DNA of 64,000 bases from Candidatus Lloydbacteria bacterium RIFCSPHIGHO2_02_FULL_50_18. GTDB taxonomy: Bacteria; Patescibacteriota; Minisyncoccia; Phycocordibacterales; UBA6899. The stretch spans positions 174,381 through 238,380 of the forward strand of contig MHLM01000014.1 in the NCBI GenBank assembly GCA_001821395.1, read 5' to 3'. The position numbers were made by a program, and so were the translations under genes. The notes beneath the pieces were generated by a model, which worked only from the letters and a program-made list of their open reading frames with translations, searched no databases and was not told the origin of the DNA. Of this stretch, positions 3,199 through 64,000 are shown in pieces (within the stretch, counting starts at the first letter, position 1; the number at the start of each line of letters is the position of its first letter).

Positions 3199-3762
3199 CT
3201 ATATTTGCCTGCGGAGGATCAGGATGATCACTCCGCTTTGGATAAAAAAGAATGCGATCGGTGTGAGTGCGTATGCGATGGTCATCGAGGGGATCGCAAG
3301 TACACCGAGTGTTGCGGCAAGGAGTCCGTAGAGCCAGCCCCTAAGCGGTTCGTTGTGCGGGTCTTTCCAGAGGTTGATCAGCATCGGTATCGAACCAACG
3401 ATGTTCGCAACGACACTGATGGTGATCGCCACGTTTGCATTACCCGAGAAATACCACCCGACCAACGCCAGGATCACGAGTCCGAAGCAGAAGCTGTCGA
3501 GCTTCTTCCACTCGATCGTCACCTTTTTTACGCCGCAGAGGATGACGATGAGTCCGGTCCCTGCGAAGTAGACGTACATTTGCCGGACAATAGAGTCCTT
3601 CGCGATCATCCCTGCCAAAATGACTGCATCAACGATGAGCCATGAGAGCCACGTAGAGAGAGTTGGTCTCGACGTACCACTAAGGATGGAGCGAATGTAT
3701 GGGACGTATGCCCACACTACGGCGACTATCGCCAGTGCGGTAAAGAAAGAAACACGGTCCAT
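3199..3762 (-). CDS. hypothetical polytopic membrane protein
   Basis: Start chosen at internal ATG (MDRVSFF...) preceded by an AGGGAG-like RBS. At least five hydrophobic segments. The ORF-track upstream extension lacks an RBS. Confidence 0.5.
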   Translation of the reverse strand: MDRVSFFTALAIVAVVWAYVPYIRSILSGTSRPTLSTWLSWLIVDAVILAGMIAKDSIVRQMYVYFAGTGLIVILCGVKKVTIEWKKLDSFCFGLVILALVGWYFSGNANVAITISVVANIVGSIPMLINLWKDPHNEPLRGWLYGLLAATLGVLAIPSMTIAYALTPIAFFFIQSGVIILILRRQI

Positions 3763-14920: not shown

Positions 14921-15529
14921 TTGAAAAGGAGACCCATCATGGGGAAACTTATCACAGAGACACCGTACTCGGAGATTACTGCAACGATGGAGTTGCTCGA
15001 TTCTTTTGGTGTGTCACGGGAAGATCTGACTCGGTTCAGGAAGGCTTCGTGGGAATTGAAGACGAGGGTGGCTGGCCTCATCATCCATGGCGTCTCTCAC
15101 AGCGCCACAATATCCGTCGACTACAATATGCCTCTCAAGGCAATGATTGTCTCCGGGCTTTACGATTGGGTGAACAAGAATATCACTGAAGAACACTTCC
15201 CGATTGCGGAAAGTGGAGTGGCAAATATCACGGTTGAGCTGGTGCAGTTTGGTCGAAAGATTTTATTCGATGATGCCGTCGCCGAATTGCGTCGTCGCGA
15301 TTTACGCCCCGCAACCCTGGCCGAGCTCCTTGCGTTCGGTAATGCGTTCCCCATGGAGCAGTGTAGGTACCCTATTGTGGCGCTTGGCTCCGATGCGATC
15401 GTCGACCGCCTTCGGTACGTCGCATTTATCAGCAAAGAGGGTTCGGATCGGGTTCTCGACCTCGAGTCTACGTTCGGTTATTTTTTTGGCAACGCTCGTT
15501 TTCTTGCCGTGTGCAACAAAGATCTATGA
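14921..15529 (+). CDS. hypothetical protein, paralog A of the tandem cassette pair
   Basis: 202 aa. Shares faint motifs with the 15820 protein ('YDWVNK' vs 'YPDWVKQ'; C-terminal 'VLDLES...ARF' vs 'RLDLHW...AARF'). Confidence 0.5.
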   Translation: MKRRPIMGKLITETPYSEITATMELLDSFGVSREDLTRFRKASWELKTRVAGLIIHGVSHSATISVDYNMPLKAMIVSGLYDWVNKNITEEHFPIAESGVANITVELVQFGRKILFDDAVAELRRRDLRPATLAELLAFGNAFPMEQCRYPIVALGSDAIVDRLRYVAFISKEGSDRVLDLESTFGYFFGNARFLAVCNKDL

Positions 15530-15569: not shown

Positions 15570-15612
15570 AATATCGTCCCGCGCATGTATGCAAATACAG
15601 CGCGGGACTTTT
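15570..15612 (+). terminator. conserved GNRA-tetraloop terminator, copy 1
   Basis: 'cccgcgc a tgtat GCAA ataca gcgcggg' then acttttaaatt; about 40 nt nearly identical to 16468-16511. Confidence 0.65.
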
Positions 15613-15705
15613 AAATTGACAAAAGTGCCACTTGGATTAGGTTGAAGGTATTGTTCTTGGTTTTTTAATGCAGGCGTGCATTCCTGTATGGGGTAGGTCG
15701 GTGGT

Positions 15706-15748
15706 CATAGCCAAAAGTCCTTTGATGAGCTCAGGATTTCTGGCTGTG
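15706..15748 (+). repeat. 43-nt conserved hairpin element, copy B (upstream of the 15820 gene)
   Basis: Identical 43-mer. Flanking bases extend the stem with a compensatory change relative to copy A (C-G in A, T-A in B). Confidence 0.8.
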
Positions 15749-15819
15749 ACCAACGTAGGCCACAGCTCCACCTCGGATGAGAGGAAAATCTACGCACAAT
15801 TGAGTGCAAGGAGAATGAT

Positions 15820-16419
15820 ATGATTAGAGAAAGATTGGCGATCGCTGATGTCACTGGTGGGCAATTGAATGCCATCGTCAAAAAGATCAAAAAAGCTGGC
15901 GGAGTTGATGGCGTCCAACGCTTCTTGTCCGACGAACTCATCGTCACCGCAAAGGAAGACACCATCATCCGCATCACGCGTCCGGTCAAACCGACCTACC
16001 CCGACTGGGTGAAACAGGTGATGCACCCAGAACTAGAAGACGTGGGTCCAGGCGAGTACGATCTCGCTTCCATCGACCTATGGCTCGATGAGCGACAGAT
16101 GAAGAGTAGTGACTACATGAGACAGATGGGGCGGGTCTACGGAAGCGTTATCTACGAAGATTTCAAACACAACGACAGACTTAAAACCTGTCTCGGCCTC
16201 CGAGATGCCGAGGAGATCCAAAAGAAGGGCCCCGCCGTTTTCCGCCGATGCTTCGGCAAGAAAGCGTTGTGCTTTTGGAAGTCGGTTGTCTGCAGCACGG
16301 ATCTTAATCTCCACGTCCCGTGTATCTACGTGTTAAATGATGATGTGGTGATAAGTTGGTACCGGCTCGACCTTCACTGGTCGAGCGACGACAACCTTGC
16401 GGCGCGTTTCACAAGTTAG
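15820..16419 (+). CDS. hypothetical protein, paralog B of the tandem cassette pair
   Basis: 199 aa. Good RBS (AAGGAGAAtgat-ATG). Confidence 0.5.
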   Translation: MIRERLAIADVTGGQLNAIVKKIKKAGGVDGVQRFLSDELIVTAKEDTIIRITRPVKPTYPDWVKQVMHPELEDVGPGEYDLASIDLWLDERQMKSSDYMRQMGRVYGSVIYEDFKHNDRLKTCLGLRDAEEIQKKGPAVFRRCFGKKALCFWKSVVCSTDLNLHVPCIYVLNDDVVISWYRLDLHWSSDDNLAARFTS

Positions 16420-16467
16420 TTCTTTGGGTTCGGTCACTATGTCTTTGTGATATTCTGACCCTCGATA

Positions 16468-16511
16468 TCGCCCCGCGCATGTATGCAAATACACCGCGGG
16501 GCTTTTTGTTT
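16468..16511 (+). terminator. conserved GNRA-tetraloop terminator, copy 2
   Basis: 'ccccgcgc a tgtat GCAA ataca ccgcgggg' then ctttttgttttt. Confidence 0.65.
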
Positions 16512-18503: not shown

Positions 18504-18677
18504 GCACTTGCTCCCTTCGCCCTACGTCGTTCGCGTCGAAAACTTTTTGCTATTTTCTGACAAATAGCTCAATAGGGTTTCTTTTTGCGAAGCTGTCAAG
18601 CTAGGCATTTATCCAATCGCGCTTAGAATGGGGGGAGTTATAGTTCATTGAGAACAACTCTCTAAAGGAGAAATGGT

Positions 18678-34137: not shown

Positions 34138-35382
34138 ATGTCTTCATTTTTTTACACAGCAAGATCAGCAAGTCGCGCCGTCGGTGCCAACCGGGTCCGT
34201 TCCGGTCTTACGGTCCTCGGTATCGTGATCGGTGTCACGTCGATCATCCTTATCGTCTCGATCGGTGAGGGTGCGCAGTCGCTCATCCTGGGGCAAATTC
34301 AAGGCTTGGGAGCTGAGACCATCGTGATACGCCCGGGGAGAAAGCCGTCCGGTCCGACGGATATGGCGCAGACATTATTTGCGGACTCCATCAAGCAGCG
34401 AGAGGTTGACGCATTGAAACGTAAGGAAAACGTACCCGACTATGTCTCCTCAGCACCGCTGCTCATGGTGTCGGATTCAGTGACCTACGGTTCCAACATT
34501 GAGCATCCTACGATCTACGGTTGGTCTGCAGAGTTCATGGTAAGCATGATAAAAGCAAAGATAAGAGTCGGAACTATTTTTGATGAGGAGGATATAAAAC
34601 AGGAAGCGGCGGTTGCGGTGCTTGGGAGTCAGATTTCCGATGATCTGTTCGCGGGTGATGATCCTATCGGGAAGTCTATTCGCATTGGGACGAAAAATTT
34701 TCGCGTTGTCGCAGTGCTTCAAGGGGGTGGGGGAGGGCTTTTGAACACAGACAAGATGGTGGTGATCCCGTACTCTACTGCGCTTACGTACCTCTCGTCA
34801 GGGAAACATTACAATGAGGTCATGTTGAAGGTCTCTTCGCCGGAAGCTGTGGCGCGTTCCGTTGAGGACATCAAAGCGACGCTTCGGGAACTGCACAGCA
34901 TTACCGATCCTGCGAAAGATGATTTTTATGTCGAGACACAGCAGGCGGCGATAGATCAGATCGGTACCATACTTTCGGTGCTCACTGCATTTCTTTCCGC
35001 GGTGGTCGCGATATCGCTCGTCGTCGGCGGCATCGGCGTGATGAATGTCATGCTCGTATCGGTCACCGAGCGTACAAAAGAGATTGGTCTGCGAAAGGCG
35101 CTCGGTGCGACCAATAGTGATATTTTGACGCAATTCTTGCTCGAGGCGGTGCTCCTCACTATGGTGGGAGGTGCGATCGGCATTGTCCTCGGGGTCCTGT
35201 TCGGTTATGGCGCATCTATTGCCTTATCGCAAAATCTTAATGTCGATTGGGCGTTCGCATTCCCATGGAGAGCGGCGCTCATCGGTCTTGGTGTTTCCGG
35301 CGGCGTGGGTATCGTCTTTGGGATCTATCCTGCACGGCAGGCTTCACAGAAGAGTCCGATCGAGGCGCTCCGTTACGAGTAA
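34138..35382 (+). CDS. ABC transporter permease (FtsX/MacB-like)
   Basis: 414 aa with an N-terminal TM, a periplasmic MacB_PCD-like domain and C-terminal 4-TM FtsX domain. Confidence 0.85.
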   Translation: MSSFFYTARSASRAVGANRVRSGLTVLGIVIGVTSIILIVSIGEGAQSLILGQIQGLGAETIVIRPGRKPSGPTDMAQTLFADSIKQREVDALKRKENVPDYVSSAPLLMVSDSVTYGSNIEHPTIYGWSAEFMVSMIKAKIRVGTIFDEEDIKQEAAVAVLGSQISDDLFAGDDPIGKSIRIGTKNFRVVAVLQGGGGGLLNTDKMVVIPYSTALTYLSSGKHYNEVMLKVSSPEAVARSVEDIKATLRELHSITDPAKDDFYVETQQAAIDQIGTILSVLTAFLSAVVAISLVVGGIGVMNVMLVSVTERTKEIGLRKALGATNSDILTQFLLEAVLLTMVGGAIGIVLGVLFGYGASIALSQNLNVDWAFAFPWRAALIGLGVSGGVGIVFGIYPARQASQKSPIEALRYE

Positions 35383-35392
35383 GTCCCGCTCG

Positions 35393-35522
35393 GGTTTTCT
35401 TCTTTTGAAAGGCACACAGTCGGCCCCTCCTGCGGGGGCCGCTGTCACTCTCGGCCAATTGCCCCATCAGAATGGGGACCAAGCCAATTGTCCTCCGAGA
35501 GGCCTTTCAAAAGAAGAAAACC
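35393..35522. repeat. 130-nt element with perfect 21-bp terminal inverted repeats (MITE-like or structured RNA)
   Basis: ggttttcttcttttgaaaggc (35393-35413) and its exact reverse complement (35502-35522). The interior has three GC hairpins (ggcccc/ggggcc; cccca/tgggg; ctcgg/ccgag). 'ctcg' flanks both ends. Confidence 0.7.
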
Positions 35523-35765
35523 CTCGCCTCAGAGGAGCGGCGTTTGAGTTTGGTGCCCGCAGGTGGAGAAGAAACACTTGGCAGAATAGCTAGTTAGTGC
35601 GAGTATGTTTAGTAACTCGTGACCGAGTTCTCGGGAGGAAACGAGCGAAATTAGAATACGCAAAACATGAATATAGTGTATTTATCCCCATTCTCAGAGA
35701 CTTGGGTTGCAAAGGGCTTGCAGGCTGAGTATTTTCAACTCCTAAACGAGTTTAAAAAATAAAAT

Positions 35766-38768: not shown

Positions 38769-38957
38769 TTATCGTTTCTTTGAAATGAGAAAGTGTGCCG
38801 CAAAATAGAGCAAGAGTCCCGGGAGTATCCCCGTAAGGACCATAAGGACGATGTAGCCGACACGGAGTATGCCGGGGCTGACTTCCATCCATTCACCTAA
38901 ACCTCCGAATATGCCGCTGGCAACCTTGGAGTCATCACTTTTATGCAGTTTTTTCAT
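38769..38957 (-). CDS. PspC-domain small membrane protein
   Basis: 'KVASGIFGGLGEWMEVSPGILRVGYIVL' matches PspC domain consensus. Confidence 0.7.
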   Translation of the reverse strand: MKKLHKSDDSKVASGIFGGLGEWMEVSPGILRVGYIVLMVLTGILPGLLLYFAAHFLISKKR

Positions 38958-38980
38958 ATGAGCTATTGTATCGCAGACGA

Positions 38981-39814
38981 TCAGCGAAATGCAAACTTCT
39001 TTTGCAGGCTTTTGAGAAAATAATTATCTTCAAACTCCGCAAAAGTGATGATATGTTTTGACTTCGTGACCTCGACGCGGTCTTTTTCGTGAAGAGGGAA
39101 GAGGTCCATATCATCGGCGGTAAGCACCGCATCAATGGGTTCATTGGTTTGTGTGATTGCGAGAATTCCTCTTTTGCGCACTTCGGTGATGTCGATGTAC
39201 ACGGTCTTTGTGTTTTTGAGGACAAGAGACGGTGTCGGAATATTGTGATCAAGCAACTCCGTGACAATCATGCAGTGCATGTCCGGAGTGACGATCGGCC
39301 CGTGCGCCGAGAGATTGTATGCGGTAGAACCGGTCGGAGTCGCGATGATCACCCCCGAGCCGTGTACATATTGGAGCGGATGCCCATCAACGGATATCGT
39401 CATTCTGATCGTACCCATGATGCCTTGCGCGGTGACTTCATTCAGGCAGTCGGTGGTGTGGACGAGGGCTCCGCCGCGAAATACTTTTGCGGTAAGCATC
39501 ATGCGATGTGTCGTGACGAACGATCCTGAAAGGAGGGCGTCAACTGCACCGATGAATTGATCCGGTCTTCGAGCGGATGCTAAAAAACCGACATGACCAA
39601 GATTAAGACCGAGGAATATCGGTGCGTTTTTTTGAAAGTATCGTGCGCTTTCCAGTATCGTTCCGTCACCGCCGAGGGTGATCACAAAATTGGGTTTTTC
39701 CGTTACGATCAGAACACGCGGATGGTGTGCGGCGATGTGTGCGATGATCTTCTTTTTCCAGTTCAGTGCGCGCCGGTTGTCGGCTCGGCAAAATAGTGCG
39801 ACTCGTGTTTTCAT
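38981..39814 (-). CDS. nadK: NAD(+) kinase
   Basis: 'FVITLGGDGTILESARYF' GGDG motif, 'DGHPLQYVHGSGVIIATPTGSTAY' NADK motif. Confidence 0.85.
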   Translation of the reverse strand: MKTRVALFCRADNRRALNWKKKIIAHIAAHHPRVLIVTEKPNFVITLGGDGTILESARYFQKNAPIFLGLNLGHVGFLASARRPDQFIGAVDALLSGSFVTTHRMMLTAKVFRGGALVHTTDCLNEVTAQGIMGTIRMTISVDGHPLQYVHGSGVIIATPTGSTAYNLSAHGPIVTPDMHCMIVTELLDHNIPTPSLVLKNTKTVYIDITEVRKRGILAITQTNEPIDAVLTADDMDLFPLHEKDRVEVTKSKHIITFAEFEDNYFLKSLQKKFAFR

Positions 39815-46052: not shown

Positions 46053-46124
46053 GTCCTTGTCGTTCAATGGATAGGATATCTCCCTCCGAAGGAGATGATG
46101 CTGGTTCGATTCCAGCCAAGGGCA
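46053..46124 (+). tRNA. tRNA-Arg (anticodon CCG)
   Basis: Manual cloverleaf: acceptor gtccttg/caagggc (one G-U), D-arm gttc-aatggata-ggat, anticodon stem tctcc/ggaga with loop cTCCGaa (U33, CCG, A37), T-arm gctgg-ttcgatt-ccagc, discriminator A. CCA not encoded. Confidence 0.85.
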
Positions 46125-63006: not shown

Positions 63007-63702
63007 ATGGACCTCCGCCCACACATCGCCCTCTCGAGTCTATCCCATGCATACGTCATTGAAGGTGCTCGTGCATCGGGGCTTTCCGCACTTCGTGACC
63101 TCATGGAGTCTTTTGGTATCGCGATCAAAGCAAATCCCGACTACCACGAGTATCAATACGAGACATTGCTCATCGAGCATGCACGAGAACTTCGCCGCGA
63201 GCAGGGGATGCGCGGAGCCGAAGGCGCAAAGAAGATATTCGTCGTTGCATTCAATGCCATCCACCATGAGTCTCAGAATGCGCTCCTGAAGACCCTTGAA
63301 GAGCCGACCGACAACACACATTTTTTCTTTCTCGTGCGCACGAGTGAGATCCTCCTTCCGACCGTGCGTTCACGCATGCAAGTAGTAAGAGGAGAAGAAT
63401 CGAAAGGGGATGCGCTTCCGCTCGCCGCAGAATTTTTGAAAAGCAGCATCTCCGCCCGCATGAAAATGATCGAACCGATGACCAAAGCAAAGACTGACGA
63501 TAAGCCGAGGGCAAAAGAAGAAGCGCGCCTCTTTGTCGAAGCACTCGAGCCGCTGCTGTATGAAAAGATCACTCAGGAAGAGCCGCGCATTACCCGTGCG
63601 CTCGAGGATGTGCTCATTGCAAAACGTGAGCTCTCAGGTCGTTCGCCCTCAGTGAAGCTGCTGCTTGAGCATTTGGTGCTTACGGTGCCACGTGGTAGCT
63701 AG
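63007..63702 (+). CDS. holB: DNA polymerase III delta' subunit-like clamp-loader protein
   Basis: 'QNALLKTLEEP' and 'ILLPTVRSRMQ' (SRC-like) are clamp-loader box motifs. There is no intact Walker A, consistent with delta-prime. Confidence 0.65.
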   Translation: MDLRPHIALSSLSHAYVIEGARASGLSALRDLMESFGIAIKANPDYHEYQYETLLIEHARELRREQGMRGAEGAKKIFVVAFNAIHHESQNALLKTLEEPTDNTHFFFLVRTSEILLPTVRSRMQVVRGEESKGDALPLAAEFLKSSISARMKMIEPMTKAKTDDKPRAKEEARLFVEALEPLLYEKITQEEPRITRALEDVLIAKRELSGRSPSVKLLLEHLVLTVPRGS

Positions 63703-63734
63703 GAATAAGCCACACCACGCTCATTTGTTAAAAA

Positions 63735-63763
63735 CTTGCGTACTATTGAAAAATATGATATAA
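63735..63763 (+). promoter_or_regulatory. sigma-70-like promoter TTGCGT-17-TATAAT
   Basis: Good consensus hexamers and spacing. Drives the structured leader at 63771-63957. Confidence 0.55.
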
Positions 63764-63795
63764 TGTCGTTATAAGTTCGTTGAACGTTTTAACGT

Positions 63796-63912
63796 TCGCC
63801 AGAGCAGAAAGTGCCCCATCTAAAGACGGATTAAGGTCTCTCCTTGGCTTTGAAAGGTGAGAACTTAGAGAGGTTGTCCGTCTTTTGTGGATGAGATCTT
63901 TTCTGCTCTGGC
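63796..63912 (+). ncRNA. structured 5' leader or small RNA candidate (15-bp closing stem enclosing roughly 85 nt)
   Basis: cgccagagcagaaag pairs with cttttctgctctggcg. There is an inner 8-bp stem aaagacgg/ccgtcttt and a preceding small hairpin gaacgt-ttta-acgttc. It lies between the promoter and the RBS (AAAGGA) of the gene starting at 63958. Confidence 0.4.
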
Positions 63913-63957
63913 GTAACCATTTCGGTAAGGCTCGGGCAAATTTGAAAGGAATTGTCA

Positions 63958-64000
63958 TGACACAACGTGTCGCCGACAGTGAAATCGATCGCGCGATGAA
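63958..64000 (+). CDS. 5' end of an unidentified gene (MTQRVADSEIDRAM...)
   Basis: ATG after an AAAGGAATTGTC spacer. Truncated by the window edge. Confidence 0.3.

Follow-up and report, generated by a model that had tools for sequence, protein, structure and literature searches.

The window analyzed here, a stretch of 64,000 nucleotides from contig MHLM01000014.1 (positions 174,381 to 238,380) of Candidatus Lloydbacteria bacterium RIFCSPHIGHO2_02_FULL_50_18, ends in a gene that is preceded by a promoter and a long structured 5' leader. We found that this leader belongs to a conserved family of sense-strand 5' leader RNAs in Parcubacteria-type bacteria of the candidate phyla radiation (CPR), Candidatus Lloydbacteria included, and that the family is tied exclusively to variable-protein genes of the diversity-generating retroelement (DGR) type, drawn from at least three sequence-unrelated families (A, B, and D). 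A preliminary description of the DNA did not remark that the element is multi-copy, with three copies in the window, or that the genes it heads are of the DGR type. DGRs are very common in CPR bacteria.

The copy at the window end is laid out on the plus strand as follows:

63736-63741 (+), -35 hexamer TTGCGT, read from the sequence, with TTGCAT or TTGACA at the equal place in 15 related leaders
63756-63764 (+), extended -10 element TGaTATAAT, with a 17-nt spacer from the -35 hexamer, from sequence and comparison
63775-63783 (+), boxA-like 5' motif GTTCGTTGA, from alignments, beginning about 10 nt past the -10 element
63782-63797 (+), small local hairpin GAACGTTTTAACGTTC in the fold, in this copy alone and not kept in relatives
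63797-63811 (+), 5' arm CGCCAGAGCAGAAAG of hairpin P1, with a conserved AGC core at 63804-63806, from fold and covariation
63812-63898 (+), variable apical module of P1, with inner helices GACGGA../..TCCGTC and AAGGTCTC../..GAGAACTT
63899-63913 (+), 3' arm TTTTCTGCTCTGGCG of P1, with a conserved GCT core at 63904-63906, from fold and covariation
63914-63938 (+), conserved single-stranded tail TAACCATTTCGGTAAGGCTCGGGCA, with CGGTAAG at 63923-63929, nearly invariant in Lloydbacteria copies
63945-63959 (+), ribosome-binding site (RBS) AAAGGA (63945-63950) and ATG (63957-63959) of a gene for a 190-amino-acid (190-aa) protein, which extends past the window end

The leader of 191 nt folds at -66.8 kcal/mol, compared to -49.0 ± 4.2 kcal/mol for shuffled sequences (z = -4.2; none of 200 shuffles was as stable), bearing out the structured leader of roughly 190 nt of the preliminary description. 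Hairpin P1 occupies 117 nt (63797-63913). Its closing helix (63797-63811/63899-63913), first reported as 15 perfect base pairs, is indeed long but consists of 14 perfect pairs and a terminal G63811-U63899 pair; the internal helices said to lie within it are present in the fold, and the enclosed region measures 87 nt rather than about 85. The RBS holds as described, whereas the distance from the 3' end of the helix to the start codon is 43 nt (63914-63956) instead of 40, with the ATG at 63957, one base before the 63958 given earlier. A sigma-70-type promoter precedes the leader, its TATAAT (63759-63764) extended by TG at 63756-63757 (TGnTATAAT). The earlier wording of a near-consensus TTGCGT-17-TATAAT applies to the -10 element only; the -35 hexamer agrees with TTGACA at three of six positions, and for this reason the site is missing from a consensus promoter scan. 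In the 15 related leaders, the promoter is kept at a fixed distance from the leader despite differing flanking sequence; the spacer is always 17 to 18 nt, the -10 element is TATAAT-like and usually carries the TG, and the -35 hexamer comes in two versions, TTGCAT/TTGCGT or TTGACA. Judged from the position of the promoter, transcription would start at or near the boxA-like motif.

The wider family was reached through the protein. A metagenome contig search with the alignment of the 190-aa protein yielded 80 homologous loci, among which a sequence-only nhmmer profile of the Lloydbacteria leaders gave no convincing match and so missed the family. When the 220 nt upstream of the homologous genes were read, the same plan was apparent in many of the 80 loci: TTGACA-17-TATAAT, AGTTCTTTGATA within about 0 to 10 nt, a spacer that is often TTTGCGAA, and a hairpin, the lower stem being followed by a variable region, often a second hairpin, and then the RBS. 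The lower stems differ in sequence from locus to locus, for example TCGCCATAGCC...GGCTATGGCGA, GGTCATAGCG...CGCTATGACC, GTCACAGCC...GGCTGTGAC, GGTTACAGC...GCTGTAACC, and GCCGTAGC...GCTACGGC. A gap-free alignment of 24 distinct leaders, trimmed to 18 nt per arm and anchored on the AGC and GCT cores, has 92.8% of its cells paired, a figure raised, unlike the strand asymmetry, by the arm-complementarity filter through which several of the sequences were chosen. Compensatory changes occur in 11 of its 15 pairs, and its covariation score of 0.64 compares with 0.18 for column shuffles (none of 500 reached it) and 0.09 to 0.16 when the arms are slid by 1 to 3 columns. G-U pairs outnumber A-C combinations 11 to 1 in the core helix, so the conserved molecule is RNA read from the gene strand.

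A covariance model (R1), seeded with 19 leaders and scanned over 366 kb, gave strong matches only directly upstream of these genes, exactly three of them in the window, and located the leader in about 27 of the 80 homologous loci. It recovered members outside the seed (L018, L040, L052, L071, L079, L089, and others), and the gene strand always far outscored the reverse (e.g., 77.5 versus 30.0 bits); each of the 34 strong matches is immediately followed by a gene in the same orientation. In the 34 best matches, aligned by fitting to the model, which favors structure, 96% of cells are paired and 11 of 16 pairs show compensatory changes, with a score of 0.62 versus 0.19. As an independent test, three loci were fetched solely by homology to the 199-aa family B protein of the window; in two, the leader scored highly just upstream of the target, and in the third the 5' arm is missing although the 5' motif and the 3' arm remain. 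Viral contigs with a loose form of the motif, 738 kb in all, served as a negative control and gave no R1 match. A scan of IMG/VR with the loose pattern returned chance matches only; the strict pattern gave one match of 33.9 bits, on a contig classified as viral (L302, 8439-8530), with no recognizable variable-protein gene or reverse transcriptase nearby. The copies in the window are:

63772-63929 (+), leader at the window end; 41.5 bits with R1, E = 9e-9, reverse strand 17.1 bits
14794-14886 (+), second copy; 60.7 bits, upstream of gene 14939-15529
15677-15769 (+), third copy; 52 bits, upstream of gene 15820-16419 (199 aa, family B)

Gene 14939-15529 is paralogous to that of the 190-aa protein (46% identical), and homologues of family B are DGR targets. 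The preliminary description had named a lack of conservation upstream of orthologous genes as evidence against the element; the helix instead covaries across lineages, and its judgment that such a helix is unusual for an ordinary 5' untranslated region (5' UTR) is upheld.

Identification of the downstream gene, which had been called for, was completed with contig L004, which carries the upstream holB-like gene and reaches past the window end; the full open reading frame (ORF) of 190 aa lies at 1786-2358. Pfam returned no match for the 190-aa protein or for six other leader-associated ORFs, and only 17 database homologues of the 190-aa protein were found. An AlphaFold model built from the homologue alignment (pLDDT 84.9) comprises an N-terminal helical part and a C-terminal domain. 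The protein is predicted to have a C-type-lectin fold of the C-type-lectin/formylglycine-generating enzyme (FGE) type, in which the variable region is C-terminal. In six of the 80 homologous loci, the 3'-most 125 to 135 nt or so of the gene are repeated a few hundred bases downstream, and nearly every mismatch coincides with an adenine in the downstream copy (21 of 21 in L039, 24 of 25 in L074, and 18 of 19 in another), a pattern that identifies the two as a DGR variable region (VR) and its template repeat (TR). A DGR-type reverse transcriptase (RT) lies in the flanks of about 25 of the 80 loci and an Avd gene in those of about 30. Together, the adenine-specific mismatches and the nearby Avd and RT genes argue that the 190-aa protein, like these homologues, belongs to a DGR variable-protein family.

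The same holds for families B and D. Locus L106, also from Lloydbacteria, is a complete DGR with the leader, a family D target with its VR, a TR all of whose 12 mismatches fall at adenines, an oppositely oriented Avd gene, and an RT bearing a YADD motif, and the three loci fetched by family B homology are all DGRs with Avd and RT genes and adenine-specific mismatches (20 of 20, 16 of 16, and 16 of 18). Comparison of the ORF families by hhalign gave only insignificant C-terminal similarity. In these CPR DGRs (L106, 999-1367; L171 to L173; about 30 of L013 to L092), the target gene, TR, and RT share one strand, and Avd, placed between TR and RT, is on the other. For the 190-aa gene, neither the 64-kb window nor the flanks covered by L004, L007, and L008 yielded a TR, RT, or Avd, and no TR was found within the window for any of its three leader-headed genes; the window copy would be a remote target or an orphan.

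The exclusive association raises the possibility that the nascent leader marks DGR targets, for example, by binding the Avd-RT or TR-RNA particle, and helps the cDNA find dispersed targets. The leader does stand only before DGR-type targets of at least three unrelated families, both beside complete DGRs (L106, L172, and L173) and at remote copies, among them the three in the window, which contains no RT or Avd. To our knowledge, however, target recognition by DGRs requires only elements at the 3' end of the VR, the initiation of mutagenic homing (IMH) site and a hairpin. The known DGR cis elements, i.e., the IMH, the post-VR hairpin, and the TR-spacer RNA, share the association with DGR targets and lie at the 3' end of the VR or flank the TR, whereas the leader is at the 5' end of the target mRNA, some 600 nt from the VR recognition elements and at the opposite end of the gene. 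In the same protein family, many DGR loci have no leader, and R1 found nothing alike near TR, avd, or RT in the 366 kb scanned. We consider such a marking role very improbable.

Within Lloydbacteria, the leader heads interchangeable genes. Searching with 18 nt of the 3' arm as a pattern gave many chance matches and, among them, 13 Parcubacteria contigs; a single Candidatus Lloydbacteria metagenome-assembled genome carries up to five copies (five in JAYSSO01 and three in JAYTEB01). These copies hardly differ in promoter, 5' motif (GTTCATTGAG), lower stem, which reads (T)GCGCCAGAGCAGAAA/TTTCTGCTCTGGCGC(A), or tail (AACCAATTTCGGTAAGGCTCGRGCA), whereas the ORFs behind them, of 180 to 220 aa, fall into at least five unrelated sequence families. 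At the site between holB and recO, the leader is constant whichever ORF family follows: family A in the window, L012, and L151, family B in L111 and L123, and family E in L103. The unit from promoter to terminator is about 870 bp, with the terminator about 92 nt past the stop codon, and is 95.7% identical in a second context, IleRS-X-RRF (L008). In the assemblies L001 to L010, every pairing of a left flank (holB or IleRS) with a right flank (recO or RRF) occurs, four in all, and several contigs break off within the unit, which therefore behaves as a repeat; at least one of the flank joins is probably chimeric, and it is because the leaders are nearly identical that assemblies break or turn chimeric at these loci. 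The MreB genes of the window and L008 are only about 55% identical. Terminator-like hairpins (CCGCGCATGTATGCAAA.ACAGCGCGGG) are alike across cassettes (window 15576-15613 and about 16443-16506; L151, 1879-1917; L103, 3856-3892), so that both ends of the variable-protein cassettes are conserved.

This arrangement could also be explained at the level of DNA, with leader and terminator serving as homology arms or boundaries of an exchangeable cassette and the hairpin being incidental or acting as DNA. The near-identity of the unit in two contexts, the four flank combinations with contig breaks inside the unit, the differing ORF families behind one leader at the holB-recO site, and the common terminators all fit such a view. 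Yet compensatory changes hold the helix across distant lineages whose primary sequence has diverged, and the 11:1 ratio of G-U to A-C and the far higher scores of the gene strand indicate selection on RNA; in the loci viewed, the cassettes come with no recombinase, integrase, transposase, or integron-like array. We therefore regard a DNA-level element as quite unlikely, while noting that a use in recombination and an RNA function can coexist. The near-identical upstream segments before divergent ORFs, with ORF replacement at a fixed site, recall the conserved 5' regions of variable multigene families such as the Mycoplasma vlp/vsp lipoprotein genes. Integron attC sites, likewise hairpins with conserved bases and a variable center, were rejected as an identity of the element: attC sites have arrays, an integrase, and an R/L box consensus, whereas here single cassettes lie between housekeeping genes, each with its own promoter and with the hairpin 5' of the ORF, no integrase is present, and the covariation is of the RNA type (G-U).

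Across the family, the leader has a constant order: a boxA-like motif, a short spacer, the unbranched hairpin P1, and a short tail, often with GGUAAG, followed by a gene-specific RBS stretch. Around an invariant AGC/GCU core, with an invariant G-C at the fifth pair, the lower 15 to 16 pairs of P1 either are conserved or covary, while the apex is freely variable, its 20 to 90 nt being replaced or shortened wholesale between copies. The inner helices carry compensatory changes of their own (UCUA/UGGA versus UUGA/UCAA; GACGGAC/GUCCGUC versus UGCGAAC/GUUCGCA and GGUGGAC/GUCCACC), and a GGTAAG or GGTAG tail recurs in some distant members (L014, L031, L026, and L039). Two variants may be recorded here. 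The hairpin TTTTTGGAAGCTTAGCTTCCAAAA forms the P1 apex in L098 and L105 and appears in L120 and L151 as a terminator-like hairpin just before the promoter, upstream of the -35 hexamer. A degenerate leader in L171 (2770-3000) keeps the promoter, a 5' motif AGTTCATTT, the P1 3' arm, and the tail, has lost the 5' arm, and heads an apparently active DGR target (20 of 20 mismatches adenine specific).

The 5' motif has the family consensus GTTCWTTGA; it reads AGTTCTTTGATA in members outside Lloydbacteria and has the consensus GTTCATTGAG within them. Gram-positive rRNA boxA elements carry G at the position where the family consensus departs from the gamma-proteobacterial boxA. The gamma-proteobacterial boxA consensus is GYTCTTTAANA (PMC5725501), with which AGTTCTTTGATA agrees at 10 of 11 positions, although this consensus may not be that of the host; the window copy, GTTCGTTGAAC, agrees at fewer positions, with its place after the -10 element conserved. 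Documented boxA elements outside rRNA operons include one in the leader of suhB (PMC5725501) and others preceding CRISPR arrays (PMC7665894). In having a motif near GYTCTTTAANA just past a strong promoter, the present leader resembles the Nus/boxA leaders of rRNA operons, lambda nut, suhB, and CRISPR arrays (PMC5725501, PMC7665894), and in lambda nut a hairpin follows boxA in the same order. It differs from them in heading ordinary translated single genes with their own terminators, in having G instead of A at position 8 (and, in Lloydbacteria copies, A or G at position 5), and in a P1 that far exceeds lambda boxB in length and is conserved around another core. A further occurrence of the motif GTTCATTGAG, at 18643-18652 of the window, lies 26 nt before the ATG (18678) of a 546-aa ORF of unknown function, with a TTAGAAT -10-like hexamer before it and no P1 hairpin after it.

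A stem of this kind may act through stability or processing, as a site for RNase III or another double-strand nuclease or as a protective 5' structure that sets the half-life of the mRNA, with no role for Nus factors and with the 5' motif being simply the initial transcribed region. Leaders processed by RNase III (Escherichia coli pnp and rnc; lambda N) likewise combine a strong promoter with a long, near-perfect 5' UTR stem before the RBS; the long coaxial helix (about 40 pairs in the window copy, counting the 15 basal pairs and the inner helices), the keeping of the lower stem while the apex varies, as expected if a double-stranded stretch suffices, and an RBS that is not consistently sequestered all accord with this. 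Generic double-strandedness, however, would not call for an invariant AGC/GCU core, a G-C fixed as the fifth pair, or the conserved single-stranded motifs that flank the stem, and short members have only about 16 to 25 pairs. In addition, the pnp, rnc, and lambda N leaders belong to single genes and are autoregulatory, whereas this family is common to many unrelated ORFs and has conserved single-stranded flanks. An explanation by stability or processing with no part for Nus is thus rather unlikely, in our estimate.

The preliminary description found no match by eye to common riboswitch, T-box, signal recognition particle (SRP), 6S, or transfer-messenger RNA (tmRNA) consensus, and the Rfam check agrees. 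Rfam 15 at the gathering threshold gave a single match in the whole window, a tRNA (46053-46124), and thus no rRNA operon there, nothing relevant in 63600-64000 even at E ≤ 10, and no leader match in 17 related loci; no SRP, 6S, or tmRNA motifs were seen by eye, and a literature search found no described leader of DGR targets and no Lloydbacteria RNA elements. Among the classes that the preliminary description offered, a riboswitch is disfavored by the presence of one unbranched conserved hairpin with a replaceable apex and by the lack of a conserved junction or pocket and of a terminator or anti-terminator. An RNA thermometer is disfavored because the RBS of the window copy is not paired in a conserved way; across the family, the mean unpaired probability of the RBS region ranges from 0.3 to 0.7, with start-codon calls there made automatically and rough. 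A long structured 5' UTR with covariation is what a riboswitch or thermometer governing translation or termination would show, and in some family B copies (L111 and L154) the RBS does lie inside a small CUCCU...AGGAG hairpin. Set against this are the silence of Rfam, the interchangeable apex of a single helix with no conserved internal loop or expression platform, the open RBS of the window copy with accessibility inconsistent across the family, and the nature of the genes, which encode hypervariable binding proteins and not a metabolic pathway; either device is extremely unlikely.

A free-standing small RNA, the further option offered, is not supported: the stretch from the hairpin to the ORF contains no terminator, and all copies sit immediately before a same-strand gene. 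A hairpin freed from the 5' UTR by processing or premature termination and acting in trans would agree with the strong promoter, the very stable compact hairpin, and a lower stem that is sequence invariant across several copies per genome. It is nonetheless hard to credit, since no terminator follows P1, the position relative to the ORF is fixed, and the apex, usually the seed region of hairpin small RNAs, is the least conserved part. Other candidates were tried and set aside: a type III toxin-antitoxin system or retron, for lack of tandem repeats and of an adjacent RT; base pairing between the 5' motif and the RBS, which occurs in some minimum-free-energy folds (L028) and not consistently; and antitermination into the TR, weakened by a terminator after the target gene in L039 and L106. 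In L039, a separate TGnTATAAT promoter precedes the TR, after the terminator of the target gene.

There remains the protein-binding regulatory leader, which is the best supported of the classes first proposed and is still plausible. We tentatively favor, at a little less than an even chance, a cis-acting leader recognized by protein, possibly of the Nus/boxA type, that sets the processivity, processing, and stability of the mRNA. A protein-recognized RNA pattern is suggested because sequence is kept inside the helix and in its flanks while the apex is dispensable. The leader would act in cis on the nascent or mature mRNA and would not sense a ligand. The boxA-like motif may recruit elongation factors of the NusB/S10 type to RNA polymerase, for which the rRNA leaders, lambda nut sites, the suhB leader, and CRISPR leaders are precedents; the sequence-conserved lower stem of P1 would be the recognition site of a second protein or of an RNase III-type enzyme; and motif and stem would jointly set the processivity, processing, and stability of the variable-protein mRNAs. 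In Lloydbacteria, leader and shared terminator may double as homology arms for cassette replacement, as a near-identical leader and a shared terminator bracket interchangeable ORFs.

Several observations weigh against a Nus/boxA-type leader. The likeness to boxA is a resemblance over 9 to 11 nt to a gamma-proteobacterial consensus that may not be the host's, and GTTCGTTGA of the window and GTTCATTGAG of Lloydbacteria stray further from it than the motifs of distant members. Each gene is a translated single cistron closed by its own terminator, and the TR of L039 has its own promoter, so that a need for antitermination is not evident. About two-thirds of the homologous loci have no model match, and the leader is therefore not obligatory for the gene family. 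Moreover, the identity of the lower stem among Lloydbacteria copies could come from recent copying or gene conversion and not from protein recognition.

Other repeats were noted in and beside the window. A perfect inverted repeat of 22 bp with 88 nt between its arms (35392-35523) lies in a 380-nt gap after an ABC-permease-like ORF (34138-35382); it has no Rfam match, and its sequence is unrelated to the leader family. A 20-nt inverted repeat (38932-39051), 85% complementary and with 80 nt between its arms, is near the starts of minus-strand ORFs. Beyond the window end, L004 has an inverted repeat with 28-nt arms downstream of recO (3324-3505) and, upstream of recO, an intergenic block (2524-2638) about 90% identical to one in L103; neither has an Rfam match.

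A cis-acting structured leader, possibly with a boxA, is a known kind of element. This family, absent from Rfam 15 and not described in the literature searched, is new, as is its tie to CPR DGR genes, and it is a candidate entry for RNA family databases. A leader backed by covariation that marks DGR targets of several unrelated families suggests that hypervariable proteins are under shared control, and it provides a handle for studies of binding partners, processing, and Nus dependence as well as a new sequence signature for locating DGR targets far from their retroelement. If the boxA reading is true, a lineage with minimal genomes would add a new class of genes to those under Nus-factor control. 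The leader could even be a dedicated RNA part of the CPR DGR system, in which a boxA/nut-like signal on the nascent target transcript ties the target locus to a modified transcription complex or to the Avd-RT particle. That idea is a long shot; were it true, a DGR-dedicated leader would link transcription of the target to its diversification, and one retroelement would be able to serve dispersed targets.

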